Assembly (NCBI GenBank): GCA_027371715.1
Contig: DAHXMM010000020.1
Location: 1 to 32,000, forward strand
Direction: 5' to 3'
Length of the DNA stretch: 32,000 bases
Origin: Elusimicrobiota bacterium
GTDB taxonomy: Bacteria; Elusimicrobiota; Elusimicrobia; UBA1565; UBA9628
Position numbers and translations under genes: made by a program. The notes under the pieces were generated by a model. The model did not search any database, was not told the origin of the DNA, and saw only the letters and a program-made list of their open reading frames with translations. This document shows, one piece after another, positions 3,001-31,276 of this stretch (positions are counted from its first letter, which is position 1; each line of letters opens with the position of its first letter).

Positions 3001-4481
3001 CTTTCCCGGCTGATTCCGGCATTATTCCCATCACCAAGTCTCCGGATGTCTTGAGCGTATTTCCGACCAACCTTATCAACCCCGCCGGCGTCGTTCAAGG
3101 CCAAAACGCGCCGGCGACGGAACTCAGTCTGATCACCCAGCACAGTTCGGTGACCTGGACGACGATTGCCGTCCAAAGAAGCGGGACCTTGCCGGATTCG
3201 GGAGTTGATTCCGTCAATGTTTATTACGACGCCGATCAAAACGGGGTGTTTGATTCCTCGGACGTCTTGGTCGGAAGCGCGCCGTTTGTTTCCGGAACGG
3301 CTAACATTTCTTTTTCCACCGCTCAGCTGGTCAATCCCGGAGGTTCGGACTATTTCGTCACGCTTCAAATCGATCCGAACGCCACACCCGGAGATACCAT
3401 TGGAATTTCTCTCTCTGGAAATTCTAACTTTAAGGTTTTGCCTCCAGATACGGTTTCGGGATCGAGCCTTCCTTTTAATTCGGCCCTGGCGCCGGTCTTA
3501 AACATAAAAACTCCGATCACGCCCGTCGTCACATTCCCCAATGGAGATTTTTCCAGTTCCTTTGACTCCATCGGATTTATCTGGTATTCGACCGTCGCCG
3601 TCGGGTCTATTTCAAGCGCGGCCTATGCCGTAGGAACGACGCCCGGGGGAACCGATATTGCGCCCTACACCAATATCCCTTTCGCCGCTTCCAGCTTTAC
3701 CGCGGTCAATCTTCTGCTCAGTAACGGCGCGACCTATTACGTATCTGTCGAAGCGACGTCCAACTACGGTTTTACCAGTCCGCCGGGAACCAGCCCCGGG
3801 TTCCTGGTCGATTTGATTACGCCCATGCCGCCGAGTAGTTTGACGGCTAATGTCGGAGTCAGCTCGATTTATCTCACCTGGAATCCCGGCAGCGCGGGGC
3901 CCTCGGGACTCGCGGGATACCTGCTTGAATATTCCGATGTCGAACATCCGACCTGGTATAACGCGAAAACCGGAGCGGTCTCCGCCCTGGAGATGGGGAC
4001 TGTCCCTAACTCCGCCAGCCCGCATTCCGTCTTGTCGGCGAATTTTATTTCCGCTTCGCCGTTCTTGTTCAATAGCCCGCCGCAAGGAACTCTGATGTTC
4101 CGCGTCAGTTCAGTCAACGGCGCGGGGGTACAAAGCGCGCCTTCCGACACCATTCGCGTGCTTTTTGGGACGCAATCGACGGCGGGAATATCCAACGTTT
4201 CCTCCTATCCCAATCCCTTTAATTCTAATTCCGGCGTGGCCACCATCGTCTATACCTTGGACGCGCCGGGAAGCGTCTCGATTCAAATCTACAGCGTCTT
4301 TGGAAGTCTCGTCAAAAGTTTCTCTTATTCCGGTGGAGGCACGGGGGGAGAAGCCGGAGTCAACACCGTCACCTGGGATGGGACGGATTCCGGGGGCCGC
4401 AAAGTATCGAAGGGAATTTACATTGCCGTCCTTAAAGCCAACGGCATGAGCGTCCAATACAAGATCGGGGTCAATCACTGA
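3..4481 (+). CDS. Giant secreted cell-surface protein, 5'-truncated by the window edge; repeat-rich Ig/FN3-like modules with a C-terminal FlgD-Ig / T9SS type-A sorting-like domain
   Basis: Frame 3 is open from the window edge (GDHPTSIGSIYESPDGVNWNLVY... precedes the ORF-track TTG at 180), so the true start lies upstream. Stop TGA is at 4479-4481. Five ~160-aa modules share the motif LGxGxxSDISxVxIYxD. Two Cys-containing ~48-aa modules are present. There is an FN3-like segment (SIYLTWNPGSAGPSGLAGYLLEY). The last ~95 aa (SYPNPFN...VTWDGTDSGGRKVSKGIYI...) resemble FlgD-Ig/Por-secretion tail domains. Confidence 0.85.
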   Translation, partial: GDHPTSIGSIYESPDGVNWNLVYATSTDANFGALSDFNGQLYAGSVNGSIYQITPVAATLAGSDGTNAAEKLSATGLNLVQSTSTVTCGGVSPCGATDQIIFTASDLAGNVLESGPYAILVDTTVAPAISTPSYPSNGAYLNYQTNFSWIGPSTTVVSGLLPPSFYQLEVSNNDPTFATTFVNISTPIPPVNTGLATDNGAYISTYTFANLTTYYWRVRTVDGFGGTSPWSETFNFTTDFSSPTAVNGSFATLNSLGGLVPETQVTVLQNGVTAQLNITDIGSGFSAFNSTDYSVRYSTNAGAVWISDPFSALAFTGLIGQTSTQTFTAYGLNLAASTNSIVCAGISPCGASNQIEFTFSDQAGNFTTAGPYAIIVDTHSTDVLVSTADVAPLGIPQNTSVAFIRLTLNSLAGTAPWTGLTVERLGSGTDSDVQNVAIYRDSLGTGIFSPSDTQITQNAVFSGGVVNLTMTNPESITTSTKTYFVVYTAAAGALVGDGLQAEITSTASFTFNGGYAMSAAQTTIYPLISSTATVVDGPNYLYITPTSKAPSDDPPGTANIEMLALKAYTNTGTSTLSKIVFNLLGTGASNDISAISIYRDSNGTGVYANNDELVTSGSDAFLNGVSTVAFTTTIASETVTTSPIYYFVLISLSPNAPLGDTLGVSISTPSNVELIDVLDTTTFTSNPAASSLLTIEYVNTLNVQGASQIPPSLLQGQEYAVLKASFTVSTGETAFDGMDITRLGLGHDSDISAVRIWQDPNPPEAFNPATFLQLSSGSFVNGNAQLNFPLQTLSAGTTYVYYVTYDISPTATQGDTLGGRITSNLDISDTNPGTTIVGNFSINSATSPVVPTTAGLFVGAQNVAPSDLLQGATNQQMLNLTMDTTQYSVLLGALTFNSLGTAASSDISRVEVYQDLVGNGILNTTKDPLLSALSYPFISGTGIIPFSSGITISTISITLLVAVDVSTGANYINNDFGIGIATQANISINSPNFVVPSTTTFPADSGIIPITKSPDVLSVFPTNLINPAGVVQGQNAPATELSLITQHSSVTWTTIAVQRSGTLPDSGVDSVNVYYDADQNGVFDSSDVLVGSAPFVSGTANISFSTAQLVNPGGSDYFVTLQIDPNATPGDTIGISLSGNSNFKVLPPDTVSGSSLPFNSALAPVLNIKTPITPVVTFPNGDFSSSFDSIGFIWYSTVAVGSISSAAYAVGTTPGGTDIAPYTNIPFAASSFTAVNLLLSNGATYYVSVEATSNYGFTSPPGTSPGFLVDLITPMPPSSLTANVGVSSIYLTWNPGSAGPSGLAGYLLEYSDVEHPTWYNAKTGAVSALEMGTVPNSASPHSVLSANFISASPFLFNSPPQGTLMFRVSSVNGAGVQSAPSDTIRVLFGTQSTAGISNVSSYPNPFNSNSGVATIVYTLDAPGSVSIQIYSVFGSLVKSFSYSGGGTGGEAGVNTVTWDGTDSGGRKVSKGIYIAVLKANGMSVQYKIGVNH
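3995..4011. repeat. Palindrome copy inside the surface-protein CDS (read as MGTVPNS)
   Basis: gagatGGGGACTGTCCCTAACTcc, perfect core at 3996-4006. Confidence 0.85.
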
Positions 4482-5110
4482 CATGAAAAAAAAAGGGACA
4501 GTCCCTTTTTCGGCCGCCCCACATGAGAATCCAGCCCCATTTTCTTTCTTGTCTCCAGCTCACATCCATCATCCACGATATATTTGTAAATCTCCACTCT
4601 CTTTTGGGAAAAGTCAGCCAAAGACAAATAAGCGGGGCTCTCTTCCAAAAAAGGGGACTGTCCCTTTTCTCCCAAATAAAAGCGATAACTGGACCAAGAA
4701 TAATCTTCCGGTTTCCGCGCGATGGCCGCGCGCACGGGATTTAACTCGATATAGCGGCCGCAAAGAAGAAGACTTCGGTCCGTCGGCAATAAAACGCTTT
4801 TATAGCGCCCCTGCCAGAGATGCCCCACCGAGGAATTTTTCTCTCGGAAATAATCGGAATACCCCTGTAAAAGCTTTTGCATCGCCTTGCTCAGGTCTTC
4901 CGGCTTTTGAACCTGGACCAAGAGATGAATATGGTTGGGCATCAGAACATAATGATGGATCCGAAAAGGATTTTTCACCTTGCTCCACCGCAGAATGTCC
5001 AAAAATCTCTCATAATCGGCTGTTTCATGGAACACGGCTTGACGATTATTCCCGCGCGCCATCAAGTGGTAAAACCCTCCTTCAATCAAATGTCTCCCGC
5101 ATCTTGACAT
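4475..5110 (-). CDS. REP-associated tyrosine transposase (RAYT; IS200-like Y1/HUH transposase, COG1943 type)
   Basis: 211-aa ORF with N-terminal GGFYHLMARGNNRQAVF, HUH motif in VLMPNHIHLLV and catalytic-Tyr region GRYIELNPVRA. SD GGGGAG (5118-5123, minus strand) lies 8 nt upstream of the ATG. Palindromic repeats sit on both sides. The last 12 codons run through the repeat at 4486-4510, and codons GEKGQSPF run through the repeat at 4647-4668. Confidence 0.9.
   Translation of the reverse strand: MSRCGRHLIEGGFYHLMARGNNRQAVFHETADYERFLDILRWSKVKNPFRIHHYVLMPNHIHLLVQVQKPEDLSKAMQKLLQGYSDYFREKNSSVGHLWQGRYKSVLLPTDRSLLLCGRYIELNPVRAAIARKPEDYSWSSYRFYLGEKGQSPFLEESPAYLSLADFSQKRVEIYKYIVDDGCELETRKKMGLDSHVGRPKKGLSLFFSCQ
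4486..4510. repeat. Palindrome copy, A/T-run-flanked subtype
   Basis: A9-GGGACAGTCCC-T5, core at 4495-4505, starting 14 nt after the surface-protein stop and inside the RAYT 3' end. Confidence 0.9.
4647..4668. repeat. Palindrome copy, A/T-run-flanked subtype, inside the RAYT CDS
   Basis: A6-G-GGGACTGTCCC-T4, core at 4654-4664. Confidence 0.85.
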
Positions 5111-5179
5111 ATCAGAGTCTCCCCTTATCCGAATTATCTCCTACCTCTCATACGTCAAAAACGAGAAAAAAGTTCCCTC

Positions 5180-5203
5180 AAAAAAAGGGACAGTCCCTTT
5201 TTT
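5180..5203. repeat. Palindrome copy, A/T-run-flanked subtype
   Basis: A7-GGGACAGTCCC-T6, core at 5187-5197, upstream of the RAYT start. Confidence 0.9.
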
Positions 5204-5205
5204 CA

Positions 5206-6765
5206 TTGATTCTAAACAAAAAAGGGACAGTCCCTTTTTTCTTATTTCTACTTCTCTCCTCCATATCGGCATCGGCCGCGAGCTTCTATGCGGGTTCTCC
5301 CAACGAGATATTTCAATTCGGCGCGGATGCCAGGGCCATGGGCATGGGCAACGCCTACACCGCCATTGCCGGTGGAGCGTCTTCCCTTTATTACAACCCG
5401 GCGGGCCTCGGTCTTCTCAATGGCCCCGATGTCAGCGCCATGCAGGCCAGTCTTATTGGCGGCGCGGCCTATGAAGATTTATCCTACGCCCAAAATTTCT
5501 CAAAAATGCCGGGAGCTTGGGGCGTTGAAGCCCTCAATATGGGAGTGGGAGGGGCCGAGCAAAGAGACTCTCAAAATAATCTCACCGGAAGCTTTGGTTT
5601 TCAAGAAACCGGATACGGAGCGGGATTTGGCCTAAGGAATGTCGTCATTCCGAACTTATCCTTGGGAGGCTCTTTTCAGGGGCTCAGCCGAAGCTTGGGC
5701 GGTAGTTCTTCCGACATGCTCTATGGAGCGAATTTGGGAGCCCAGTACGGCCCCTTTTTGGACAATATGGTGACCGCGGGTTTGGTCCTCCAAAACGGTT
5801 TTAACGGAGCGCAAAATACCTTTGACCGGCTACCCACGGTTTTACGCGCAGGGCTCGCCGTCACTCCCATCAATAATCTTCTCATTTCCGCGGATTACGG
5901 CGATGATGGCGATTACGGAATCGGCGCGGAATATCGAATATGGATGTTCGCCATACGAGCCGGATATATCCCCCAAGGCCTCACCTTCGGCGCCGGAATC
6001 TATTATCAATCTCTGGAAGCCGATGTCGCGATGGTCAACGATCCAATTTTTGGAATGGGGGAGAGATTCTCGCTTAATTACCGATTCGCGGGAAAGAAGA
6101 AAGAAAAGCCTCTTGAAGCTTACACTAATAGTTATCTGGATGCCGCAAAAAAAGAATTAAGTCTCCGCAATTATCTCAGCGCGCAATTCGCGCTTGAAGA
6201 AGCGATGGGAGTCTCTCCCGCTCAGATTCCTCAGACATGGAAAGAAAAACTCAAACTTCTTCAAGCTTTTAATGGCAGCCTAGATCTCAAAAACCGTCCG
6301 GATGAGGTCAAAACTCTCCTTGCAAAAGATCAACCGGCCATACTCGCCCAAAAATCGGTTTTTTCTTATTTAAACGGACGCGACGGAGACGCCATGATTT
6401 GGGCGTCCGTGGCAGCCGGAACCGCTCATAAATCCATGCCCTATATTGACTTTGTCAAGACGATGGCTTATCTTACGAATATGAAGGTTTCGGAAGGGGA
6501 TTTATTGCCTCCACCAGATTATGTTTCCAAAAAAATGGAGACTGCTCTTCATGCTATTTATCAAAAGCGTTTTGCCAATGCGGTTAAAAATTGCCAACAG
6601 GCCATCGTGGTAAACCCGAAAGAGCCTTCTGCCTGGACGCGGCTGGGTAGCGCTTATTTTGCCTGGGGACATAAGGATGAAGCCAAAAAAGCCTATCAGA
6701 AAGCTTTAGAGCTTGATCCCAAGAACGAAAATTTAAAGAAATTTATGGAGATGTATATCAAATGA
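5206..6765 (+). CDS. Outer-membrane beta-barrel protein (PorV/PorQ- or UPF0164-like N-terminal motif) with C-terminal TPR domain
   Basis: In-frame TTG at 5206 gives MILNKKGTVPFFLFLLLSSISASAAS, a plausible signal peptide; the first in-frame ATG would remove it. GADARAMGMGNAYTAIAGGASSLYYNPAGLG resembles the conserved N-terminal motif of PorV-like/FadL-like barrels, followed by Gly/aromatic-rich beta-strand-like sequence. The C-terminus has TPR-like repeats (AWTRLGSAYFAWGHKDEAKKAYQKALELDPKN). The 760-aa ORF-track model (4483..) is an antisense-RAYT artefact at its 5' end. Confidence 0.7.
   Translation: MILNKKGTVPFFLFLLLSSISASAASFYAGSPNEIFQFGADARAMGMGNAYTAIAGGASSLYYNPAGLGLLNGPDVSAMQASLIGGAAYEDLSYAQNFSKMPGAWGVEALNMGVGGAEQRDSQNNLTGSFGFQETGYGAGFGLRNVVIPNLSLGGSFQGLSRSLGGSSSDMLYGANLGAQYGPFLDNMVTAGLVLQNGFNGAQNTFDRLPTVLRAGLAVTPINNLLISADYGDDGDYGIGAEYRIWMFAIRAGYIPQGLTFGAGIYYQSLEADVAMVNDPIFGMGERFSLNYRFAGKKKEKPLEAYTNSYLDAAKKELSLRNYLSAQFALEEAMGVSPAQIPQTWKEKLKLLQAFNGSLDLKNRPDEVKTLLAKDQPAILAQKSVFSYLNGRDGDAMIWASVAAGTAHKSMPYIDFVKTMAYLTNMKVSEGDLLPPPDYVSKKMETALHAIYQKRFANAVKNCQQAIVVNPKEPSAWTRLGSAYFAWGHKDEAKKAYQKALELDPKNENLKKFMEMYIK
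5218..5240. repeat. Palindrome copy, A/T-run-flanked subtype, overlapping the OMP signal-peptide codons
   Basis: A6-GGGACAGTCCC-T6, core at 5224-5234, read as KKGTVPFF. Confidence 0.9.
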
Positions 6766-6910
6766 AAGAAACGGAAAGTAAAAGAAAGTTACGGAAAGAA
6801 AATGAAAGAAACAGAAAAAGGCCTTACCTTGCTCTTCGTTCCTTTCTGTTGCTTTCCGTTACTTGCCGTTGCTTTCCGTTTCTTGCCGTTGCTCGCCGTT
6901 GCTGGAGGTT
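6761..6910. repeat. Phased 10-nt repeat array: six NNNGAAAGNN units followed by eight pyrimidine-rich units ending in (C/T/G)GTT, mutually complementary
   Basis: Units at 6761-6820: aatGAAAGaa, acgGAAAGta, aaaGAAAGtt, acgGAAAGaa, aatGAAAGaa, acaGAAAAag. Units at 6831-6910: gctcttcgtt, cctttctgtt, gctttccgtt, acttgccgtt, gctttccgtt, tcttgccgtt, gctcgccgtt, gctggaggtt. There is a perfect 13-nt inverted repeat: AAGAAACGGAAAG (6766-6778) versus CTTTCCGTTTCTT (6872-6884). Confidence 0.8.
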
Positions 6911-6913
6911 ATC

Positions 6914-9430
6914 ATGGACATCTTAATGATCGTTTTTATTCCCAGTCTTTTTATCATCCTGGGAGCCCTAATGTTTATCGTCAGCCGGGTGATGGAATTC
7001 TCGCAATCCAATCGTTATTTCGCAAAACAAAGAGGAAACAGCCTTATGTTTACGCGTTTCATGACTCAAATTGCCATGGCCAAAAGCCAACTTGGAAAAA
7101 GAGCCCAGGAATTGGAAGCTCTGTCCATGCGCCTTCAAATGAATAACGAAGAACTTGCCCGGCTCAACAACCTCAAAATGAAATTCTTATCAATGGCGGT
7201 TCATGATATTCGAAATCCACTCACCGCTATTACCGGTTACAGCGACATTTTGTCTCGCAACAAAAATCTAGGACCCAAAGAGCAGGTTTTGTCAAAAATG
7301 ATTTTGACCGCGACCCGGCAAATCAACCATCTGATGGGAGATCTCACCGATCTCGCCGTCATCGAAGCGGGAAAATTTAAAATGGAAATGGCGCCCTTTG
7401 ATCTGGCCGGACTCATCCAGGAAGTAGGGGCCACTTTGACCCCGGGAGCCTCCAACAAAGGCGTCATTCTTTCTGTTCGAGAACCTCCGCCCGGAATTAT
7501 CATCACCGCCGACCGCTACCGCATTTGGCGCGTTTTGACGAATCTTTTGGGAAATGCCGTTAAATTTACCCCTTCTGGAGGACGCGTCGAACTCCGGGCC
7601 GAAGTCGCGGCGGGAATGGCCATGATTTCAGTCCAAGACAACGGCCCCGGGATTCACCCGACCGAACGGCGGAAAATTTTTGAAAAGTTCTACCAGTCAA
7701 AACACATCAAAGATGAAAAAGCCCGCAAGGGCGGCTGGGGATTGGGACTGGCCATCGCCCAAGAAATTGTTCAGTCCCACGGGGGAGAAATCGGAGTCGA
7801 CAGCCGTGGTCTCGGACACGGTTCTACTTTTTGGGTTCGCATTCCTCTTAAAGCCAAGCGCCCCATCCGCTCCAGCCCCATGCGTCTTGCGCTCGCTTTA
7901 ATCGGGTTTTTAGCGCTCTCTTTGGCGCCGAAAAAAACTCAGGCTCAAACTGTTCCCTTCCTTGAAAAATCAAAATTCGAAAAATCATTGGAAACCAAGG
8001 TGGACGGAGTCCTTCTCAATATCTTGGGGCCCAATCGAGCCAAAGTCATCATCAACGCGACCCTCAATTTCACAAAAACCGAAAGCTTTCAAACCGAAGG
8101 CGCCAGCATCACGACGACAAAAACCTCGGGGCTTCCGTATCTTTGGCAAGAACCCAGTAAAACGGCGCAACCCGAAGAGTTGCTACCGGGAGTGCCGCTT
8201 GATTCCGGCGGCCCGGCTCTTCCCACGCCGCCGCCATCCATCAAGGGCTATAAAAAAGAAGATTCCTTCCCCGCCGAATTTATCAAAAGATTAGACGTCA
8301 CTCTCATTTTGGATAATTCCGTCAAGGGAAACCGGAGCGCCGAAATCGGCAAAATTACGGCCGATCTTCTCAGTCTCAATCCTAAACGAGGAGATTCTCT
8401 GACCGTGGTCCACACCGAGTTTTCTCCGATCTGGAAAACCGTTTGGTACTCTCCGGAAACTGCCGGTATGCTTCTTAAATATATTTTAACCGGATTTCTC
8501 TTTTTTATGGCGCTCATCGTCATCGCCGTCGGATTTATCAAAATCGCCAACGCCATGCGCATGATGGCCAACGCACAATCCCAGCAAATCTCAATGGAAA
8601 TGAAGGGGCTTGATGGCGAGGGGGGAAATGGACCGGGCGGAGTTTTAGGACATAATACGCTCATGATTGGGGATCAGAAATCGGGAGAAAACGCCCCTGA
8701 AAACAAAAACGAACCGGTCATGTTTGACGTGCGAATGGACCAAGTAGAAACCCTGGCTCAAATGCTTCTCCCCGAACCACCTGAAAATGTCGCCATTGTT
8801 GCCTCGCGCTTGACTCCGGATGTTTCAAAAAGGCTCATCGACGCCCTCCCGCCGGAACTGGCGAGCGCGGTCGTCAGTCAACTCGCCCGCCCGCGCTTTA
8901 TCGATCCGGAAATTATCGTCAACTTAAAGGAAGAGTTAGAACGGCGTCTTTCCGGCGCGGTCGGAGGAGTGCATTATCTCGCGGAACTGATGTCGGCCGC
9001 CAGCCAAAAAAGGCGTCATGAAATGCTGGAAGCCGTTCGCTCTCAAAACCAAAACCTCGCCGAGGAACTCAGAAAACGAGTCTTTTTCATCGAGGATCTC
9101 TCAAAACTAACCCAACAAGAATGGTCGTATCTCTTGTCCTTGGTCACTTATCAAGAATGGAGCGCCGGTCTCCATGAGGGTCCCCAAGTCGTCGTTGAAG
9201 CCATCAAACAAAATGTCTCAGAAAAAGCCTGGGGGGTTCTCAGCGAGATGATTGAAGCGGCTTCTCCCACAACAGAACAAACAGAAACGGCGCAAGATAA
9301 AATCGGTCAAAGCGTCTCAGAACTCATCCGGGAACAAAGAATCAAAACCATTGCGCCGCAATTGGGACTTCAAATTCATGAATCTCCAGTTGAAGAAGAA
9401 AAAGGCGCGGAAAGTAGTAAGGGCTCGTGA
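6914..9430 (+). CDS. Three-TM fusion protein: histidine-kinase core (HisKA + HATPase_c), FliF-like periplasmic ring domain and FliG-like (middle + C-terminal) domain
   Basis: ATG 6914 is preceded by GGAGG (6904-6908). TM1 is MDILMIVFIPSLFIILGALMFIV. Kinase motifs: H-box AVHDIRNPL (His codon 7202-7204), N-box LLGNAVKF, DNGPGI, GWGLGLAI. TM2 is at 7880-7927. FliF-like motifs are LGPNRAKVIINATLNF, IKRLDVTLILD and RGDSLTVVHTEFS. TM3 is at 8468-8548. FliG-like motifs are EPPE, GGVHYLAEL, VFFIEDL and NVSEKAWGVLSE. There is no in-frame stop anywhere between the modules. Confidence 0.8.
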   Translation: MDILMIVFIPSLFIILGALMFIVSRVMEFSQSNRYFAKQRGNSLMFTRFMTQIAMAKSQLGKRAQELEALSMRLQMNNEELARLNNLKMKFLSMAVHDIRNPLTAITGYSDILSRNKNLGPKEQVLSKMILTATRQINHLMGDLTDLAVIEAGKFKMEMAPFDLAGLIQEVGATLTPGASNKGVILSVREPPPGIIITADRYRIWRVLTNLLGNAVKFTPSGGRVELRAEVAAGMAMISVQDNGPGIHPTERRKIFEKFYQSKHIKDEKARKGGWGLGLAIAQEIVQSHGGEIGVDSRGLGHGSTFWVRIPLKAKRPIRSSPMRLALALIGFLALSLAPKKTQAQTVPFLEKSKFEKSLETKVDGVLLNILGPNRAKVIINATLNFTKTESFQTEGASITTTKTSGLPYLWQEPSKTAQPEELLPGVPLDSGGPALPTPPPSIKGYKKEDSFPAEFIKRLDVTLILDNSVKGNRSAEIGKITADLLSLNPKRGDSLTVVHTEFSPIWKTVWYSPETAGMLLKYILTGFLFFMALIVIAVGFIKIANAMRMMANAQSQQISMEMKGLDGEGGNGPGGVLGHNTLMIGDQKSGENAPENKNEPVMFDVRMDQVETLAQMLLPEPPENVAIVASRLTPDVSKRLIDALPPELASAVVSQLARPRFIDPEIIVNLKEELERRLSGAVGGVHYLAELMSAASQKRRHEMLEAVRSQNQNLAEELRKRVFFIEDLSKLTQQEWSYLLSLVTYQEWSAGLHEGPQVVVEAIKQNVSEKAWGVLSEMIEAASPTTEQTETAQDKIGQSVSELIREQRIKTIAPQLGLQIHESPVEEEKGAESSKGS

Positions 9431-9498
9431 CAAAATAATAACAGTCTCTATTTACTTCGTCATTTCTTCATGATTCAATACCATTTTTGTTCTATCCT

Positions 9499-10443
9499 AT
9501 GGGTATGGCTGAAAGTCCGAAAGGTTCCATCTTTTCCTCCTTAAGGGCGCTGGAAGAAATTCCGGAAGAAACTCCCGCCGCGCCTCCGACTTCGCAAAAC
9601 CCTTCACCCTCTCCCACCCCCGCCGCACAAACACCAACGCCCACGCCGCCACCTTCGCAAGCGCCTCCTCCATCAGATGAGACTTTGAAAGCCGTGGAGT
9701 CAAAAATCGAAAAGTTAGAACAAAAAATCCAGGAGATGGGGACAGTCCCCAATTCAGACCCTCATCTTAACCGTATTGAAGCCCTGGAGCAAAAATTGCA
9801 ACAAATGCAGGAACGCGCCATTCAGGCGGAGGTCGCTCTCAGAGAGCGCGAGAAATCCCAAGAAGCCGCCCGGCGCGAGACGGAATCTCTTCTTCAAAAT
9901 TTAGCGTCCCAGCGCCGGCTTGAAGAATCGGACCGGCAAATGAAGGAAAATCTGGCTTATTGCCGACGCCGAATCGAAGAATTGGAGGAAAAACAATCCT
10001 CTATTAAAATTCCGGATACCCAACAATCGGAAAATGAGTTTAAATCCCTCCTAAAAAGTTTTATGGAACAGATCGAGCTAAAAACAACTCCGGTTTTAGC
10101 GTCTCTTGTTGATCTCAGGAAAGAAAATGAAAACCGCGAAAAAGAAAATCGCGGCATGGAGCAAAGGATAAACGAGATTGAGAAAAATATCAATTCTTTT
10201 TTTTCGACAGAGTTAGGGCAAGCGAGCGCTCTAGCAGAAGGATTACGCCACCTAAAACAAACCGTGGAACGAGTCAACACGGAAACCGCGGAAAAACTCG
10301 AAAAAATAAGCGCCGCTCTAAGCCTATTAGAATTTAGGCATTCCCAAGCGAAAAACACAACAGAAGAATTACGCGCTCTCGATAAAGACTTTCAGAAAAT
10401 ACTCTCCATTCTCGATGCCAGCGTTTCCAACTCGCCCAAATAA
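9499..10443 (+). CDS. Pro-rich N-terminus / long coiled-coil cytoplasmic protein, unknown function
   Basis: The ORF has heptad-like charged repeats (IEKLEQKIQE, IEALEQKLQQMQERAIQAE, RRRIEELEEKQ) and a PT/PS-rich tract (PSPSPTPAAQTPTPTPPPSQAPPPS). The start is ambiguous (ATG 9499 or 9505; the ORF-track start at 9487 is non-ATG). It contains an in-frame palindrome copy (EMGTVPNS). Confidence 0.7.
   Translation: MGMAESPKGSIFSSLRALEEIPEETPAAPPTSQNPSPSPTPAAQTPTPTPPPSQAPPPSDETLKAVESKIEKLEQKIQEMGTVPNSDPHLNRIEALEQKLQQMQERAIQAEVALREREKSQEAARRETESLLQNLASQRRLEESDRQMKENLAYCRRRIEELEEKQSSIKIPDTQQSENEFKSLLKSFMEQIELKTTPVLASLVDLRKENENREKENRGMEQRINEIEKNINSFFSTELGQASALAEGLRHLKQTVERVNTETAEKLEKISAALSLLEFRHSQAKNTTEELRALDKDFQKILSILDASVSNSPK
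9738..9754. repeat. Palindrome copy inside the coiled-coil CDS (read as MGTVPNS)
   Basis: gagatGGGGACAGTCCCCAATTca, perfect core at 9739-9749. Confidence 0.85.
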
Positions 10444-10444
10444 A

Positions 10445-10460
10445 GGGATAGTCCCTATTA
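10445..10460. repeat. Degenerate palindrome copy GGGATAGTCCC
   Basis: taaaGGGATAGTCCCTATTAg, starting 2 nt after the stop at 10441-10443. Confidence 0.6.
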
Positions 10461-10500
10461 GTATTTGGAATTCTCTTTTCTTTCCTATATAATAAGCAAC

Positions 10501-11238
10501 ATGGAACTAACATCGATCATCGGTCTAGGGGCTATTCTAATTTTAACTGCGATTGGCCTTGCCACTGGAGGGCTTCCGGCGGTTTTCATCAACTGGCATG
10601 GAATTGGAATCGTGCTTGGGGGAACTTTTTGCGCCCTCATGATCAACACCCCACTGGATATTTTGCTCAGAACCGGATCGTCTGTGACCGATTTAATTTC
10701 GGCCGATCCTTATGTCGACCGGATCGCTCTTGTGGACGCCATCATGACACTAGCACAAGAGGTTCAATCCCGGGGAATTAACGCCTTTAACAATGTCAAT
10801 AAAACAGTGGCCGCCGGGTATCTCGCTTACGCCGCTCAAATCGCGGTTGAATATAACAACCCTGAAACCCTCCGACAGGTGCTGGAAAATGAGATCATTC
10901 AAAATTCCGATTTACAGAACGAAGCGGTCAACGTTTTTAGAACCGCCGGAATTTTGGCGCCGATGTTCGGACTTTTGGGAACCTTAATTGGAATTGTCGA
11001 GGTTCTGCGCCAAATCGCCAACCCCGCACAAGTGGGTTCCGCCATGGCGGTCGCCATTACGACCGCTTTTTATGGCATCGCGACCGCAAACGTTTTTTGC
11101 GTGCCGATAGCCGGTAAACTAAGAATTCGCTACTGGAGAGAAACGCAGGCCAAGACCATGATTTTGGAAGGCGTCTTTGAAATCCTCCAGCGAACGCCCG
11201 CCGTCATTATCTCGCGGAAACTGAAATCTTATCTATGA
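10501..11238 (+). CDS. motA: MotA/PomA-family stator proton-channel subunit (MotA_ExbB family)
   Basis: MELTSIIGLGAILILTAIG...IVLGGTF N-terminal TM pair, a long cytoplasmic loop, then GILAPMFGLLGTLIGIVEVL and MAVAITTAFYGIATANVFCVPIAGKL, typical of MotA TM3/TM4. ATG 10501 is preferred over the ORF-track TTG 10465. Confidence 0.85.
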   Translation: MELTSIIGLGAILILTAIGLATGGLPAVFINWHGIGIVLGGTFCALMINTPLDILLRTGSSVTDLISADPYVDRIALVDAIMTLAQEVQSRGINAFNNVNKTVAAGYLAYAAQIAVEYNNPETLRQVLENEIIQNSDLQNEAVNVFRTAGILAPMFGLLGTLIGIVEVLRQIANPAQVGSAMAVAITTAFYGIATANVFCVPIAGKLRIRYWRETQAKTMILEGVFEILQRTPAVIISRKLKSYL

Positions 11239-11241
11239 ATG

Positions 11242-11262
11242 AATTGGGGACTGTCCCTAATT
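11242..11262. repeat. 21-nt palindrome copy between motA and motB
   Basis: AATTGGGGACTGTCCCTAATT, core at 11247-11257, 4 nt after the motA stop and 8 nt before the motB ATG. Confidence 0.9.
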
Positions 11263-11269
11263 ATTAATT

Positions 11270-11962
11270 ATGAGACGCTCAAGGCACGAAGACCTCGAAA
11301 ATCAGCTTGCGAAATCCGCCCAATGGGCCATTACCTATGGGGATTTCATGAGTTATCTCATGATTTTCTTTCTCATCATGTTTTCTTTCACGCTTTCAAA
11401 ATCCGGAGGGAAAACTACGGAAAACGTTAAGTATCAGGAATCCCTCATTAAAATTCAGAAGGTCTTTGGCGGGAAGGGAAGCTCCGTGGATTATGATCGC
11501 CTGATTAAGCGCGAAAAAGAAGAGTCCATGGTCACCCAACTTAAACAAGCTCTTGATAAAAAGGATTTGTCAAAATACGCGAAAATAGAAACCTGGGATA
11601 AAAAAATTCGACTCATCTTAGCCAGCGCGGTTCTTTTTGACTCCGGCCGAGCAAGCTTAGCCCCGCGATCGGAAAAAATTTTAGCCGCCGTCGCCCAACA
11701 ACTTAAAACCTTGGACAACCCGATTCAAATTGAAGGGCATACCGATAACGTTCCTATTAACGGCGGACGCTATAAATCCAATTGGGAACTTTCAATGGCG
11801 CGCGCCTACTCAGTTCTCGTTTTTTTTGAGAAACAAGGCATCGCGCCTCAACGTTTGTCCGCCATCGGCTACGGCCAATATCACCCCATCGCCGACAACA
11901 AAACGCCGGAAGGACGCGCTAAAAATCGTAGAATCGAGATAGATTTATTACGGACGGAATGA
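11270..11962 (+). CDS. motB: MotB-family stator subunit with OmpA-like peptidoglycan-binding domain
   Basis: N-terminal WAITYGDFMSYLMIFFLIMFS is a single TM with the conserved proton-binding Asp context (compare E. coli YADFMTAMMAFF). The C-terminal OmpA-like domain reads IQIEGHTDNVPI...SNWELSMARAYSVLVFF...IGYGQYHPIADNKTPEGRAKNRRIEI. Confidence 0.9.
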   Translation: MRRSRHEDLENQLAKSAQWAITYGDFMSYLMIFFLIMFSFTLSKSGGKTTENVKYQESLIKIQKVFGGKGSSVDYDRLIKREKEESMVTQLKQALDKKDLSKYAKIETWDKKIRLILASAVLFDSGRASLAPRSEKILAAVAQQLKTLDNPIQIEGHTDNVPINGGRYKSNWELSMARAYSVLVFFEKQGIAPQRLSAIGYGQYHPIADNKTPEGRAKNRRIEIDLLRTE

Positions 11963-11976
11963 AAGGGAGATCAAAA

Positions 11977-15011: not shown

Positions 15012-15018
15012 ACCCTGC

Positions 15019-15732: not shown

Positions 15733-15735
15733 ATA

Positions 15736-15746
15736 GGGACTGTGCC
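15736..15746. repeat. Degenerate palindrome copy GGGACTGTGCC
   Basis: agataGGGACTGTGCCtcttc, 4 nt after the stop at 15730-15732. It has one mismatch to the core and is complementary to 15770-15780 except at the central base. Confidence 0.6.
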
Positions 15747-15769
15747 TCTTCTTCATAATTCTTAAGGGC

Positions 15770-15780
15770 GGCACTGTCCC
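15770..15780. repeat. Degenerate palindrome copy GGCACTGTCCC
   Basis: aagggcGGCACTGTCCCgacc, with one mismatch to the core. Confidence 0.55.
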
Positions 15781-15801
15781 GACCTTAAGGTTCTAAGGAA
15801 A

Positions 15802-15817
15802 GGGACAGTCCCTAATT
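15802..15817. repeat. Palindrome copy GGGACAGTCCC + TAATT flank
   Basis: ggaaaGGGACAGTCCCTAATTatt, with a perfect core, 24 nt upstream of the thiolase ATG. Confidence 0.85.
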
Positions 15818-15836
15818 ATTTAAAGGAGGCATTTGT

Positions 15837-19251: not shown

Positions 19252-19280
19252 ATTTTACAAAATAATTAGGGACTGTCCCT
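19252..19280 (-). promoter_or_regulatory. Possible sigma70-type promoter for tRNA-Val: -35-like GGGACA (inside the palindrome), 16-nt spacer, -10 TAAAAT
   Basis: The minus strand reads AGTTAGGGACAGTCCCTAATTATTTTGTAAAATCAAAAAGTC followed by the tRNA 5' G. TAAAAT (19257-19252) is 9 nt from the mature 5' end. This is a by-eye match only. Confidence 0.25.
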
Positions 19281-20328: not shown

Positions 20329-21529
20329 GCGCGGAGACGTCCCTAAAACCCCACACACTGAATTTTACGGGCGAAAAAATATTCTGTCTTTGGAAGAAAT
20401 CCACGGCACCTACGGTTTTTCCGGAGCTTTCTCCCGGAAGATGCACTTGCGTCGCTACCCGACGATTCAAATAGAAAGCCCTAAACTCCTGCCATTAAAC
20501 CTCAGTAGTCCCGTTCTTAAGGACGCGCCGCTCAGCCCCTATCATCTTTTGACCGGAAAAATACCCTCTCAAGGGGTTTTCGAGCGTTCAAGGCATTGTC
20601 TTCTCAAAGGTCCAAGCGCCGTGATTTCAGTTTCCAAACCAACGAATTCTTCTCCTGAAAATGATTTTTTTCGAAACGCGGAAAGGCACGAATGTCTTTT
20701 CGTACAAGAAGGAAACGGAATTTTGGCCAGCGAATACGGCGAGCTCAAATTTCAAGAAAAAAAATATCTCGTCATTCCCAAGGGAACGACCTATCAATTC
20801 CGCCTTTCAAGTAAACGCGCCTTCTTTCTAATCATTGAATCTCTCTACCCTATTCGCTTTGCCCCGCATTACCTTAACTCCGAGGGACAAGCCACTTTGA
20901 TGTCTCCGGTCATTGAGACTGAAATTGGCATTCCCCAGCTCAAAGAGCCTCTGGACATCTCGGGGAAGTTTAACATCCTCTCTAAACATGACGACGGGAA
21001 AATGACAAAGATTGTCTTGGGGCATCACCCCTTTGATCTCATCGGCTGGGAAGGCGCGCTTTACCCCTTTACCTTTGACTCATCCGATCATCATTCCATC
21101 GCGCGCGAAATTCACACCGCCCCGCCGGTTCGGCAAACCTTTCAAGCGGGAAACGCGCCCCATAGCGGATTTTCAATCTGCACTTTCCGCGCTCAAATCG
21201 AGGGATGGAACCCCAAGGACGTGCCCGCGCCCTATGCGCATTATAATGTTGACTCCGATGAAATGATGTTCTTTTCAAACACAAGCTACGGGGCCCGGAA
21301 AGGAATCGTTGAACCCGGTTCCATCACCTTTCATCCCTCGGGTCTTCCGCATAGCCCGCATGGAGACGCCGCAAAAAAGTCCTTTAAATCTCGCGGCACA
21401 CTGTCGGATTATCTAGCCGTCATGTTGGATACATTTTTTGAATCTCTTCAGCCCACAAAAGAAGCCCTTAAATATTGCGACTCCCAATATCCGCTGAGTT
21501 GGGCCAAAGCGGAAGGGGACTGTCCCTAA
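20312..21529 (+). CDS. hmgA: Homogentisate 1,2-dioxygenase (short bacterial/archaeal COG3508-type cupin)
   Basis: ATG 20312 (MSLIVKRGDVPKTPHTEF...EEIHGTYGFSG) overlaps the FAH stop by 17 nt. The cupin core is ERHECLFVQEGNGILASEYGELKFQEKKYLVIPKGTTYQF, followed by FHPSGLPHSPHG. The stop TAA (21527-21529) is supplied by the palindrome flank. Confidence 0.75.
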   Translation: MSLIVKRGDVPKTPHTEFYGRKNILSLEEIHGTYGFSGAFSRKMHLRRYPTIQIESPKLLPLNLSSPVLKDAPLSPYHLLTGKIPSQGVFERSRHCLLKGPSAVISVSKPTNSSPENDFFRNAERHECLFVQEGNGILASEYGELKFQEKKYLVIPKGTTYQFRLSSKRAFFLIIESLYPIRFAPHYLNSEGQATLMSPVIETEIGIPQLKEPLDISGKFNILSKHDDGKMTKIVLGHHPFDLIGWEGALYPFTFDSSDHHSIAREIHTAPPVRQTFQAGNAPHSGFSICTFRAQIEGWNPKDVPAPYAHYNVDSDEMMFFSNTSYGARKGIVEPGSITFHPSGLPHSPHGDAAKKSFKSRGTLSDYLAVMLDTFFESLQPTKEALKYCDSQYPLSWAKAEGDCP

Positions 21530-22157: not shown

Positions 22158-22907
22158 ATGAAAAAACCGTTCATGAACTTTGTCGTTGACCACATGACTT
22201 TTCTCGTCGAACCGCGTTTTTATCCCGTCACATACGCTCTTTTTAGAATTATCTTTGGTCTTGGGGATGAAGACATCATCTACAATAAACGCCGAAAATG
22301 GCCTGGCGAGAACCAGGAAAAATCAATGACCTTTGCCGCCCGGCTTGGACGTTATGAGGGAAAGCCAGGACTCGATCAATCCATCATAGCTGTCGTTCAG
22401 CCCTCCGAACCCGAATCCCAGCCGTCTCACGTCCGGGAAATGCTTAAAAACCGAGGAGGATCCGCTCATTGGCAGCATATTGCTCTGAGAACGCCGGATT
22501 TAATGGCCTTTCACAAATACGCGCTTGAGCGCGGGGTCAATTTCATTACGCCTATTCTCAAAGACGCGGAAGAAGATTTAATTCAGGTCTTTAGCGGCGA
22601 GTGGAAGCTCCCCGGAATGCCGTCCAGCGGAATCTTTTTTGAGTTTGTCCAGAGAAACCCCTCCGCCGAACTCCTTGAGAAAATTACATCCAACCGCGAG
22701 GCTTTCTTTCGGGATAAAACTTTCTTGGGCCTTTACCAAGAAAAGGAAGCTGAATATCAAAGCAAAAAAGTTCGCCCTTTTATCGATGACGATCTTTTCT
22801 TTCAAATGGAAAAATCCTTGGCGGGGAAACCTATTTGGGAATTGACAGCTCAAGATTTGCGCCTCGTGGAAGAAAAAATGAAAAACTATGCCCATTCAGC
22901 GGTTTGA
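22158..22907 (+). CDS. VOC (glyoxalase/dioxygenase) superfamily protein, 4-hydroxyphenylpyruvate dioxygenase C-domain-like
   Basis: HWQHIALRTPDLMAFHKYALERGVNFITP...IQVFSGEW...GIFFEFVQRN resembles the HPPD C-terminal catalytic module (QHIA...F.E.IQR). At 249 aa it is shorter than canonical HPPD. Confidence 0.6.
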   Translation: MKKPFMNFVVDHMTFLVEPRFYPVTYALFRIIFGLGDEDIIYNKRRKWPGENQEKSMTFAARLGRYEGKPGLDQSIIAVVQPSEPESQPSHVREMLKNRGGSAHWQHIALRTPDLMAFHKYALERGVNFITPILKDAEEDLIQVFSGEWKLPGMPSSGIFFEFVQRNPSAELLEKITSNREAFFRDKTFLGLYQEKEAEYQSKKVRPFIDDDLFFQMEKSLAGKPIWELTAQDLRLVEEKMKNYAHSAV

Positions 22908-22923: not shown

Positions 22924-23703
22924 CTGGGGAGGGGGATAAGGTAGTCCGCGCACGGAAAACTCGGCGCTGACATCGCCCAAAATAGCGTTTTCGCCAAAAG
23001 CCGCCATCTCAAGCCTGGCCGAATTAAGCGTTTTCTTCCCACGGCGGATATTGAGGTGAGAGATAAAAACCTTTCCAGAACTCGCGAAATTTTCGCTAAA
23101 GCCAATTTTTTGATCTTCTAATTGATGAGAATTTAAAAACTTTTCCTTTTGACTTCGGTCTAAGATTGAAACAATGACCGGCTGAACCTTAGTCAAACGA
23201 GTTTTCGAAATAAAAAATCTTAACTCCAAATGTTTGCGCAAATCTTTCAAGGATTTAGGAAATAGAGAAACAATAAATTCTCCATTCGAGGAATTTCCGT
23301 AAAATGCGGAAAAGACTTTGGCGGAAGACTCCTCGCCCTTTAAGGCTTTTTTAAGCGTCACTTTTTTAGTCTTTTTGTTTTTAATTTTCTCAACTACATT
23401 TTGAATCTGGCGCACAAAGAAGGCGGATTTAAAGTTTTTCTTTTTCTCTTTAAAAACTTGAATGGGCTTCCAATGGACCGAATCCTTAGGAATGAAAACC
23501 TCTACGGATGCCTTATATTTTTTCTTTTTTTTCTTTAAACTTCCTTTTTTATTTTCTTTCTTAGGACGTTTAAGGGCCAATTTGTGATTAGATTTTGATT
23601 TTTTCGTTGAGGTGCTTGTGGCGACGTTTTGAGCCGGCAAAACAGTAGGAAATGCCGCCCCTAAAAAAAACCACGCCATTAAAATCGAAAAAAATTTTTT
23701 CAA
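22918..23703 (-). CDS. Lys-rich secreted protein, unknown function
   Basis: TTG start 23703-23701 overlaps the valS stop (TTGA). The signal peptide is MKKFFSILMAWFFLGAAFPTVLPAQN. Poly-Lys tracts are present (KKENKKGSLKKKKKKYK). The gene is visibly more A/T-rich than its neighbours. Confidence 0.6.
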   Translation of the reverse strand: MKKFFSILMAWFFLGAAFPTVLPAQNVATSTSTKKSKSNHKLALKRPKKENKKGSLKKKKKKYKASVEVFIPKDSVHWKPIQVFKEKKKNFKSAFFVRQIQNVVEKIKNKKTKKVTLKKALKGEESSAKVFSAFYGNSSNGEFIVSLFPKSLKDLRKHLELRFFISKTRLTKVQPVIVSILDRSQKEKFLNSHQLEDQKIGFSENFASSGKVFISHLNIRRGKKTLNSARLEMAAFGENAILGDVSAEFSVRGLPYPPPQS

Positions 23704-26414
23704 GCGAGAACCTTAATCAATTCTTCAAGGCGCGCTTTTTTAGAGAGCGCCGTATCCTGGAGAAACCGCGTTTCAGAGACCTCTTCCATAGCCGCTTTTG
23801 AAAGATAATTGGGATCAGAGAGCTTCTGCGATAATTTGCCCAAATCGTTTTCAACTTTTCCAAGCTCTTTTTTTAAGCGTTCAGATTCTTTCTTAAAATC
23901 AATCAAGCCTTCAAGCGGAACATAGAAGGTAAAGTGCGGAGTCACCGTGGAAGCCGCCTTGGTGGGCAGAGATTCTCGCTTAGAACTTAAGAAAGAAATC
24001 TCTCTTCCCCCGGCTAACGCCGCTAAATAAAGAAGATTCTCTTTTAAGAAGTTTGTCTCTGCGGCGTCTTCGCTTTGACAAATGACGGGAATCTTAAGCC
24101 CTGGAGAGATGCCCAGCTGCGCGCGCAAGGACCTTAAAGACTTAACCGCTTCAATTAAAGCGCTCATTCCTTTTTGGGTTTCTTCCGTAATTTTAATTTC
24201 CGGGACATTTGGAAAACGGGAATTCATCAAAAAATCCGCGGGTTCGGTATCCCAAGTTTTTAGGACCGAATAAATTTCTTCCGTGACAAAAGGCATCAAG
24301 GGATGAAGCATTTTAACGACGCCATTTAAAACGGTTATTAAAACGCGAAACGCCGTTTTTTTGGCTCTTAGATCGGCGCCTTGAAGGCGGAGTTTTGCTA
24401 TTTCTACATACCAATCGCAAAACTCATCCCACAAAAACTCATACATTTTCTCCGTCGCGTTGGCGAGATTATAAATTTCAATTTCTTCTTGAACGGAAAG
24501 AATCATCTTTTGGTATTCAGACAAGATCCAAACATCCGCCGCCTCTAATTGGAAGTTAGGGACTGTCCCTAACTCTTCAGGGGCGACCGCATTCATCAAG
24601 GCAAAGCGCGCGGTATTCCAGAGTTTATTGGTAAAATTTCGTCCGGCAATCAGCGAATCTTCCGAAAATAAGATGTCTTTTCCGGGACGGGCTTGGGAAA
24701 TTAAGGAAAAGCGAAGAGCGTCGGTTCCATATTTGTCCATCATCTCGATCGGATCGATAACGTTTCCGAGAGACTTCGACATTTTTTTTCCCTTTTTATC
24801 GCGAATGATGCCGTGGATAAACGCTTCGGAAAAGGGGACCTTCCCGGTTAAATAGAGACCCATCATCTGCATACGAGCGACCCACAGATAGATAATTTCG
24901 TATCCCGTGACGAGAATTTGAGTTGGGTAATAACGCTGGAGATCCTGATTTTTTTCCGGCCAGCCAAAAACGGAGAAAGGCCAAAGGGCCGAGGAAAACC
25001 AGGTGTCTAAAACGTCGGGGTCTTGAATCAATTCCAAATGACCGCAAACAGAACAAGCCTTTGGCTTTTCGCGAGAGACCACTCCCCTAAGATTAGGAAT
25101 TTGATGGAAAGATGAGTCTTTTGAAATCGCGTTGCATTTAAGACAGTACCAAACGGGAATTTCATGTCCCCACCAAATTTGGCGGGAGACGCACCAATCG
25201 CGAATATCGAGGAGCCAGTTCCTATAAGGCTCTTTCCAGGAGGCCGGATAAATTTTAAATTGGTTATTCTCCAAAGTCTTCAAAGCCCCGGCGGCCAAGT
25301 CCTTGGTTTTAACAAACCACTGCCAGGAAAGAAGCGGTTCAATAATTTCCTGACAACGATAACAAATTCCGACCGCGTGCGGATGGGTTTCCGTCTTTTC
25401 CAAAAAGCCTTGGAATTCCAAGTCTTGAATAATTTTTTTGCGCGCATCTTCTCTGGACAATCCGGCATAAAGGCCGCCTTCTTCAGTGATTTTTCCGGAA
25501 GGGGAAATGACCTTGATGCGGGGAAGTTGATGCCGAAGACCCATTTCAAAGTCATTGGGATCATGAGCGGGAGTGACCTTGACGGCTCCCGTTCCAAAAG
25601 AAGACTCGACAAAACCATCTTCAATCACCGGAATTTCTCGGTTCACAAGCGGCAAGCGAAGTTTTTTTCCAATTAAAGACCGATAGCGCTTGTCCTCGGG
25701 GTAAACGGCGACCGCGACATCTCCCAGCATGGTTTCAGGCCGGGTGGTGGCCACAACCAACCCCGGTCCGCCGGAAGCCTCCGGGTAGCGGATATGCCAG
25801 AGATTTCCCTTTCTTTCCTCATGCTCAACTTCTATGTCGGATAAAGCCGTTCCGCATCTCACGCACCAGTTGACCAACCGCTCCCCGCGGTAAAGAAGCC
25901 CGTCATCCCACAATTTTTTAAACGCCTCAAAAACGGCCGCTTTTCGTTTTTCATCCATCGTAAAGGACTCACGGCTAAAATCAAGCGAACATCCGAGTTT
26001 CTTGAGTTGCCCCAAAATCGTCTCTTTACAATGAAGCGTCCAATCTTCCATGCGCTGGGTAAAAGCCTCCCTTCCAATTCTAACGCGAGAAGTGTTTTCA
26101 GCCTTTAAAATTTTTTCCATTACGGTTTGAGTCGCGATGCCGCCGTGATCGGTTCCAGGAACCCAGCAGAGATCTTTTCCTGACATTCTCTTTAAGCGGG
26201 CCAGAAAATCTTGAATGGTATTATTGAGCGCATGCCCAACATGAAGCGCTCCCGTTACATTCGGAGGGGGAATGACCAGGGAATACGGTTCTTGATTTAA
26301 ATCAGGATGAGAATTGAAAATCCCCGATTGAGCCCAATGGTTCACCCAGCGAGCCTCAACATCCTTGGGACTATAGGCTTTGTCCCAGGTTTTTATTTCG
26401 GTCGTTTCATTCAT
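23700..26414 (-). CDS. valS: Valine--tRNA ligase
   Basis: 904 aa with HIGH motif PPPNVTGALHVGHALN, KMSKS motif GKKMSKSLGN, editing-domain TTRPETMLGDVAVAV and a C-terminal coiled coil. Confidence 0.97.
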   Translation of the reverse strand: MNETTEIKTWDKAYSPKDVEARWVNHWAQSGIFNSHPDLNQEPYSLVIPPPNVTGALHVGHALNNTIQDFLARLKRMSGKDLCWVPGTDHGGIATQTVMEKILKAENTSRVRIGREAFTQRMEDWTLHCKETILGQLKKLGCSLDFSRESFTMDEKRKAAVFEAFKKLWDDGLLYRGERLVNWCVRCGTALSDIEVEHEERKGNLWHIRYPEASGGPGLVVATTRPETMLGDVAVAVYPEDKRYRSLIGKKLRLPLVNREIPVIEDGFVESSFGTGAVKVTPAHDPNDFEMGLRHQLPRIKVISPSGKITEEGGLYAGLSREDARKKIIQDLEFQGFLEKTETHPHAVGICYRCQEIIEPLLSWQWFVKTKDLAAGALKTLENNQFKIYPASWKEPYRNWLLDIRDWCVSRQIWWGHEIPVWYCLKCNAISKDSSFHQIPNLRGVVSREKPKACSVCGHLELIQDPDVLDTWFSSALWPFSVFGWPEKNQDLQRYYPTQILVTGYEIIYLWVARMQMMGLYLTGKVPFSEAFIHGIIRDKKGKKMSKSLGNVIDPIEMMDKYGTDALRFSLISQARPGKDILFSEDSLIAGRNFTNKLWNTARFALMNAVAPEELGTVPNFQLEAADVWILSEYQKMILSVQEEIEIYNLANATEKMYEFLWDEFCDWYVEIAKLRLQGADLRAKKTAFRVLITVLNGVVKMLHPLMPFVTEEIYSVLKTWDTEPADFLMNSRFPNVPEIKITEETQKGMSALIEAVKSLRSLRAQLGISPGLKIPVICQSEDAAETNFLKENLLYLAALAGGREISFLSSKRESLPTKAASTVTPHFTFYVPLEGLIDFKKESERLKKELGKVENDLGKLSQKLSDPNYLSKAAMEEVSETRFLQDTALSKKARLEELIKVLA
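24554..24574. repeat. Perfect 21-nt palindrome inside valS (read as ELGTVPNF)
   Basis: AGTTAGGGACTGTCCCTAACT, core at 24559-24569. The arms are exact reverse complements. Confidence 0.9.
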
Positions 26415-31206: not shown

Positions 31207-31249
31207 CGATTATTCTTATTATTATATCACGTTCAGGGAAAATAAGAAC

Positions 31250-31276
31250 GGGAATTGAGGACAGTCCCCAATTCCC
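31250..31276. repeat. 27-nt near-palindrome (degenerate core AGGACAGTCCC) upstream of speA
   Basis: GGGAATTGAGGACAGTCCCCAATTCCC has 13-nt arms with one mismatch. It lies in the 98-nt gap between the CDGSH stop and the speA start. Confidence 0.75.

Follow-up and report, generated by a model that had tools for sequence, protein, structure and literature searches.

A palindromic REP-like repeat family around a RAYT/TIRYT-type transposase gene in a genus of Elusimicrobiota

Introduction

Partnerships between repetitive extragenic palindromes (REPs) and a REP-associated tyrosine transposase (RAYT) are known mainly from Proteobacteria, with repeats that carry a GTAG foot. Here we analyse a window of 32,000 nucleotides from an Elusimicrobiota bacterium (positions 1 to 32,000 of contig DAHXMM010000020.1, assembly GCA_027371715.1), in which the palindrome GGGACWGTCCC recurs around and beyond a gene for a Y1 (HUH) transposase. 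The repeat population is associated with this gene in the arrangement of its cassette, in its distribution across the genus and in its clustering, and it is probably a REP-like, non-autonomous element whose hairpin the enzyme recognises on single-stranded DNA and which the enzyme spreads or maintains.

REP/RAYT and TIRtron systems, intragenic REPs and a REP within a transposase gene are already known. The REPtrons, which include E. coli YafM/4ER8, the Pseudomonas REPINs (REP doublets) and the REPs and BIMEs (bacterial interspersed mosaic elements), share with the present locus a single-copy Y1 gene nested in its own dispersed hairpin repeats, inverted doublets (here common in G001, a related genome of the genus), fewer copies without the gene, and many copies at gene 3' ends. 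The repeat described here differs in having no GT[AG]G foot, a nearly perfect palindrome and a one-base centre, and its enzyme belongs to another subclass. The repeats of REPtrons are extragenic, whereas 30 of our 52 copies overlap open reading frames (ORFs) and about 40% of all copies are intragenic.

TIRYT genes (those of tyrosine transposases associated with terminal inverted repeats, TIRs) are flanked by repeats with the consensus GGGGWSAS (Di Nocera et al. 2013, PMC3733652) and correspond to TnpAY1 subclass 2.1 (PMC6006769) and to Bertels group 1. The present gene resembles these TIRtrons in its YIELNP, NH-hydrophobic-H HuH and WQ motifs, in its low copy number and in flanking repeats, located some 50-80 nt before and 0-20 nt after it, whose tips may be GGGGWSAS-like; self-complementary, moderately repeated sequences also occur among the published TIR families (PMC3733652). 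However, the core is here a fully self-complementary 11-mer in place of a 15-30-nt inverted repeat, it is present in 52-142 copies, and the protein has 211 residues against a median of 238. Palindromic inserts that are translated in frame within ordinary, even essential genes, with doublets inside genes, are known from the Rickettsia palindromic elements (RPE) and the intragenic REPs of Opitutus terrae (PMC3733652); the sequence here is unrelated to those and much shorter than RPE-1, and it is accompanied by a candidate mobilising enzyme. The subclass 2.4 tnpAREP genes (PMC6006769) share an in-frame REP inside the transposase gene itself, but in the present gene the REP lies behind the Y motif, and the motifs of the enzyme are those of subclass 2.1. 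The novelty lies in a short, perfect palindrome that lacks the GTAG foot and is attached to a subclass 2.1 enzyme, in the unusually large proportion of intragenic copies and in arms that differ between species. The TIRYT/subclass 2.1 branch, for which no substrate family had been defined before, hereby gains a clear repeat population.

Results

Enrichment and anatomy of the palindrome

The genome that holds the window (G000; the window is C26:1-32000) is assembled to 1.58 Mb in 38 contigs and is 71% complete; it was compared with the other genomes of its genus (G001-G005, six genomes in all). Within the window GGGACWGTCCC occurs exactly 11 times, against 0.01 expected from dinucleotide shuffles, and each copy lies where an earlier note on this DNA, made from the sequence alone, had placed it. 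The genome-wide census suggested in that note yielded 52 exact copies against 0.3-0.5 expected under Markov models of orders 1-5, and the 11-mer has the highest count in the genome once low-complexity words are set aside. The enrichment exceeds 100-fold in both the window and the genome, and about 12 more degenerate copies in G000 still have their arms. The one-mismatch variants listed earlier at 10445, 15736, 15770 and 31258 are all present, as is the deletion variant at 22910, which reads GGGACTGTC-TAACTC and begins three bases past the TGA at 22905-22907; the distances given from stop codons to copies are correct to within one base. The variants at 15736 and 15770 are, however, not independent decayed copies but parts of one 95-nt long hairpin that also contains the exact copy at 15802. 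Another one-mismatch match, at 15549, lacks palindromic arms and probably arose by chance, with 0.34 such matches expected per window.

The 11-mer is the invariant core of a hairpin-forming repeat of 21-25 nt with the consensus GARWTR-GGGAC-W-GTCCC-YAWYTC (52 copies oriented by the centre base). The extended palindrome proposed in the earlier note is real: the arms are complementary to about six positions, with Watson-Crick pairs in 30-47 of the 52 copies at positions 2-6, and folds of the copies as single-stranded DNA give stems of 7-10 bp, 3-nt loops and energies of -5 to -8 kcal/mol. The symmetry is imperfect. A T at the centre accompanies a G:T pair in the first arm and, read on the other strand, an A accompanies A:C; this linkage holds in 23 copies against 3, as expected if the copies stem from one oriented master sequence. 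Two arm types were distinguished, A/T arms (AAAAAA..TTTTTT) in 8 copies and TTR/YAA-type arms in 43, and the A/T-armed subtype includes all four copies at the transposase gene. The TTA..TAA form has a sole open reading frame, which gives ELGTVPNS. An Rfam gathering search of the window returned a tRNA only and no match for the repeat, and we found no mention in the literature searched of the motif as a bacterial repeat, nor of REPs in Elusimicrobia.

The transposase gene and its cassette

The transposase protein matches Pfam Y1_Tnp (E=1.4e-15) and the NCBIfam equivalog model NF047646 for REP-associated tyrosine transposases (87.4 bits, cut-off 80), and its best PDB match is 4ER8, E. coli TnpArep (E=3e-5). 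The gene is the only Y1 gene of G000, being the single match genome-wide. Its HuH motif reads NHIH (in PNHIHLL, with Ile for Val), and WQ and the Y motif YIELNP are present; the HuH and YIELNP motifs are kept across the three orthologues, with NHVH in G001 and G003. These motifs match TnpAY1 subclass 2.1 in Table 1 of PMC6006769 (NHVH or NH[YF]H, W[EQ], YIELNP or Y[IV]HLNP). The last 60 residues form a tail that is conserved within the genus and in which Pfam called no domain; subclass 2.1 enzymes are described with a helix-turn-helix-like tail (PMC6006769).

The ORF is intact and nested in four copies of the repeat, two of them upstream (77 and 114 nt), one inside the ORF after the Y motif (around residues 149-152) and one at the 3' end (Table 1). 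The cassette has the same layout in G001 and G003, the orthologous proteins being 67-70% identical. The RAYT of G035, a genome from another family of the order with 158 copies, is 31% identical and is bracketed by the same core. The repeats also cluster around the gene: 18 of the 52 copies lie within about 40 kb, or about 2.5% of the assembly, which corresponds to a roughly tenfold clustering when the end of contig C12 is joined to the start of C26 as placed by synteny with G001. Likewise, about 22 of the 142 copies of G001 fall in 36 kb around its gene.

In relatives of the same family (L011, L014, L018, L022 and L027), the genes carry TIRs of the GGGGWSAS type, which start with GGGGTCAG or GGGGGTCAC and are found some 50-80 nt before the gene and 0-20 nt after it. 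These distances match the positions of the REPs around the gene of this genus, and the copy at 5187 occupies the place of the relatives' upstream TIR. The flanks in the genus are short palindromes that read GGGGACAG or GGGGACTG only where a G precedes the core. With this preceding G, the palindrome (GGGGAC-W-GTCCCC) would correspond to two TIR tips overlapping head to head, and we infer from this likeness that it may have been born by the fusion of two GGGGWSAS tips from the inverted repeats of related genes. Fused tips suggest a simple origin for the repeat and, if true, would show the birth of REPs from transposon ends.

A second Y1 gene was found in G001 (L029, G001:C5:15953-16384). It encodes 219 residues with YVELNP, has 30-nt terminal inverted repeats and constitutes a classic TIRtron, with no counterpart in G000.

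Copy number and gene presence across the genus

The genus comprises clade A (G000, G001 and G004; about 86% identical) and clade B (G002, G003 and G005; 91-93% identical). The 11-mer is enriched in all six genomes, with 16-142 copies, and has 0-8 copies in nearly all of the other genomes (341 sampled across the order and phylum). Y1 genes were found in G000, G001 and G003 only, which hold 52, 142 and 76 exact copies, respectively. In G002 the gene is absent at the syntenic site, where other repeats replace the cassette, and 16 copies are present; in G004, with 23 copies, neither the gene nor the block matching window positions 1-12000 was found. The finding that copy number tracks gene presence across the genus is supported by these counts. 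The two separate gene-less lineages with few repeats would fit a decay of the repeat population once its RAYT is lost, which is a published pattern, and the sister species with and without the gene offer a natural comparison for such decay after loss of the enzyme. Separate amplifications outside the genus were observed in G019, G031, G035, G148, G241, G242 and G311; in the 301-genome sample of the phylum, four genomes outside the genus (G148, G241, G242 and G311) have 15-25 copies.

Turnover at orthologous sites

The comparison of orthologous sites, also proposed in the earlier note, revealed differences in presence and absence. Among 44 REP sites of the relatives that could be mapped to G000, 23 have an exact copy there and 21 do not. 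Orthologous sites are filled, empty or taken by other repeat families, and some have a single copy in one species where another has a doublet. The insertion at 3996 is absent from the orthologues of the giant-protein gene in G001 and G003. The site at 11247 is filled in G000, G001, G003 and G005, with other arms in the relatives, and is cleanly empty in G002; that at 21516 is occupied in G001 (by a doublet), G003 and G005, is degenerate in G004 and holds another repeat in G002. At 31258, G001 and G004 keep the hairpin with a different core, and clade B (G002, G003 and G005) lacks it. A REP doublet within a gene on contig C35 is found in four species; two others have unrelated sequence in its place, and the length differences there are all multiples of three. 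The comparisons of empty and filled sites were too diverged to define a target-site duplication or an insertion consensus.

The arms at these sites differ by species. Those of G000 and G005 are mostly TTR/YAA, those of G001 are mostly AAAAAG..CTTTTT (25 of 30), and G003 has both. This pattern suggests either turnover at preferred sites or conversion of some kind. In valS (window 24545-24580) and in the gene for a 314-residue protein (9725-9760), the relatives hold a same-length version of the repeat that looks half-decayed and the G000 copy is perfect, which hints at refreshment or conversion over simple insertion.

These observations bear on two explanations in which no element is copied, or in which the palindrome is a protein-binding site. 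The earlier note had considered an operator for a dimeric regulator; the dimeric protein would be either a global regulator or a nucleoid-associated protein. The perfect 5+1+5 dyad with its invariant core, the occupation of some sites in most species of the genus and the helix-turn-helix-like tail of subclass 2.1 enzymes would suit such a function, but 52-142 copies have no fixed position relative to promoters, many are discrete insertions of 21-24 nt in coding sequence, and sites are gained and lost between species of 91-93% identity. Moreover, the arms change as a block by species, and an operator needs no base-paired arms. The operator alternative is therefore not supported, and we regard it as highly improbable. 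Slightly less probable still is a compositional effect like that of HIP1, with methylation, restriction or repair bias enriching the palindrome. It would explain a short palindrome that is common within genes, and a second palindrome, CCAAGGCCTTGG, is likewise enriched in genes with flanks that are not conserved; against it stand complementary arms reaching well past the core, discrete indels of 21-34 nt against orthologues, and the doublets and clustering around the RAYT gene. Both readings fit poorly. The copies are discrete insertions with base-paired arms.

Position of the copies relative to genes

The earlier note had described the copies as usually following stop codons. This does not hold genome-wide, where only about 30% of the copies do so. 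Intergenic copies number 22 of the 52, of which about 10 lie at most 14 nt past a stop; several copies precede the next start by 5-24 nt, and seven are flanked by divergent genes. Five copies overlap the 3' end of a gene, and in two of them (window 21516; C22 22964) the stop codon comes from the arm. The largest class, about 21 of the 52, lies deep inside 13 genes and in frame, and nearly all of these copies read E-[LMI]-G-T-V-P-N-[SYF]. The host genes include valS, argS, an aldehyde dehydrogenase fusion, an AMP-binding enzyme and an ankyrin-caspase protein; the copy in valS at 24559 falls between the catalytic and the anticodon-binding domains. The population shows how far such elements are tolerated inside essential genes, and annotation of these genomes should take into account that inserts of the ELGTVPNS type and 'extended' ends of ORFs derive from the repeat.

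The positions near gene ends raise the possibility that the hairpins are selected as terminators or protectors of mRNA 3' ends, with the transposase incidental or an occasional helper. About 15 of the 52 copies lie at most 14 nt past a stop or over a 3' end, and the A/T-armed subtype fits the stem-plus-T-tract consensus of terminators at 4489-4511, 5181-5203 and 5218-5240 and is dominant in G001. Three species retain the hairpin at 31258 with cores that differ, and many REPs have been argued in published work to act as RNA. On the other hand, about 40% of the copies lie deep in ORFs and seven between divergent genes, some copies within operons precede the next start by 5-12 nt (as between motA and motB), and the main G000 subtype, a majority with TAAYTC arms, has no T tract. 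Copies are also fewer where the RAYT is missing. Finally, the orientation relative to transcription is unbiased (20 sense, 22 antisense), so that the RNA hairpin raised in the earlier note is not supported as the primary cause, and RNA-level selection on orientation is rejected. We consider this explanation unlikely overall; the A/T-armed copies may have been secondarily co-opted as terminators.

A proposed mechanism for the spread of the repeat

The reading as a REP, already offered in the earlier note, is supported by a RAYT-type gene amid the copies, a dispersed family, a copy number that tracks the gene, and presence and absence at individual sites; it is qualified by the missing foot and by a TIRYT/subclass 2.1 enzyme. 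By analogy with E. coli TnpArep and the IS200/IS605 enzymes, we infer that the transposase would recognise the hairpin on single-stranded DNA, cut it and rejoin it. Copies inserted into short spacers between genes, or in frame into protein linkers that tolerate them, would be the ones to survive. A more specific scenario is that a subclass 2.1 transposase turned TIR tips into a minimal, cargo-free palindrome, followed by active turnover at hot spots, from which the species-specific arms at orthologous sites would result, in-frame colonisation of coding sequence, including that of essential aminoacyl-tRNA synthetases, and the seeding of longer composite elements; we put this forward tentatively, as a possibility that is somewhat less likely than its contrary.

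Several points weigh against the REP interpretation. Subclass 2.1 enzymes were reported without REPs (Quentin et al. 2018, PMC6006769), and the 52 oriented copies show neither the GT[AG]G foot of canonical REPs nor any other conserved asymmetric tetranucleotide outside the palindrome. The genus comparison draws on six related, non-independent genomes and is not a statistical test. Within it, G005 has 100 copies and no Y1 gene was found; the region matching window positions ~3200-10990, in which the gene would be syntenic, is missing from its assembly, so that this genome is uninformative on the link between gene and copies. Occupied orthologous sites bear species-specific arms, which neither simple vertical descent nor simple insertion explains. 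Among strains of the same species (six near-identical contigs, 99.6-100% identical) no REP differences were seen over 15 kb, so that movement, if any, is slow on this scale. Neither transposition nor activity of the enzyme was observed. The counts relative to genes depend, outside the window, on our own crude codon-score caller, which reproduced the pipeline calls inside it. With these points taken into account, a repeat recognised and spread or maintained by the RAYT/TIRYT enzyme is still the reading that we favour.

The composite element and neighbouring repeat families

The composite element is built on a 65-nt core of two hairpins. The core occurs in 10 copies in G000, at least 25 in G001 and at least 10 in G004, with or without REP caps, and the caps bear the arms typical of each species. 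One of its stems covaries (G-C in 21 and A-U in 8 copies at one pair) and the other is invariant. A permissive Rfam search of 15650-15900 gave nothing above noise. A riboswitch or leader RNA was considered and rejected, since the ten copies face genes either way and some lie between convergent or antisense genes. We read the element as a REPIN-like derivative or as one resembling miniature inverted-repeat transposable elements (MITEs). Four REPs and two composite elements were found within 500 nt at G000:C38:17380-17930, in one uninterrupted frame of 887 codons; this stretch is the variable part of its gene in all five relatives.

Table 1 Features of the repeat family in the window.
Position	Strand	Feature	Remarks
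3996..4006		intragenic REP in giant-protein gene, LEMGTVPNS	21-nt in-frame insertion private to G000
4475..5110	-	RAYT/TIRYT-type Y1 (HUH) transposase gene, 211 aa	Pfam, NCBIfam and PDB matches; motifs
4495..4505		A/T-armed REP over last codons of RAYT	14 nt past stop of giant-protein gene
4654..4664		REP in RAYT ORF, in-frame KGQSP	same place in G001 and G003
5187..5197		REP with A/T arms, 77 nt upstream of RAYT start	DNA hairpin -8.3 kcal/mol
5224..5234		second A/T-armed REP, 114 nt upstream of RAYT	direct doublet with 5187
9739..9749		intragenic REP in 314-aa gene (9499-10443), QEMGTVPNS	relatives: same-length degenerate version
10445..10455		degenerate REP GGGATAGTCCC	begins 2 nt past stop at 10443
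11247..11257		REP filling motA-motB spacer	8 nt past stop, 12 nt before start
15733..15815	+	composite long-hairpin element: two-hairpin core capped by REP units	contains 15736, 15770 and 15802
19269..19279		intergenic REP, 11 nt before start at 19291	occupied in G001, G003 and G005
21516..21526		REP over 3' end of gene 20312-21529	TAA arm is the gene's stop codon
22910..22924		deletion variant of REP	after stop at 22907
24559..24569		intragenic REP in valyl-tRNA synthetase gene (23700-26414, minus strand), EELGTVPNF	
31258..31268		degenerate REP AGGACAGTCCC	8-bp arms

Other repeats share these genomes. A long imperfect palindrome of AACGGAAAG / CTTTCCGTT 9-mers lies at window 6764-6900, between a TPR gene and the HisKA-FliG gene; this family has many copies in G002, G003 and G005, and an element of this kind replaces the whole RAYT cassette in G002. 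A third family consists of two GC-rich hairpins around CCGGAATCCAG / GGATTCCGG, as seen at L190 (G002:C33:20850-21650). It fills the sites of G004 and G002 that match window 15736-15812 and 21516, which are REP sites elsewhere, and is nearly absent from G000 (2-4 word matches). The palindrome CCAAGGCCTTGG has 13 copies in G000 (for example C30:94548 and C33:43490), mostly within coding sequence, and is a HIP-like over-represented palindrome with no relation to the REP.

Among the neighbouring genes, a tRNA gene (19171-19242; 70.6 bits in Rfam) is located on the minus strand, 27 nt away from the REP at 19269. The operon at 6914-15732 encodes a HisKA-FliF/FliG fusion, MotA, MotB, a HEAT protein and a CHASE2 cyclase; it is free of operators, and REPs occur in two of its spacers.

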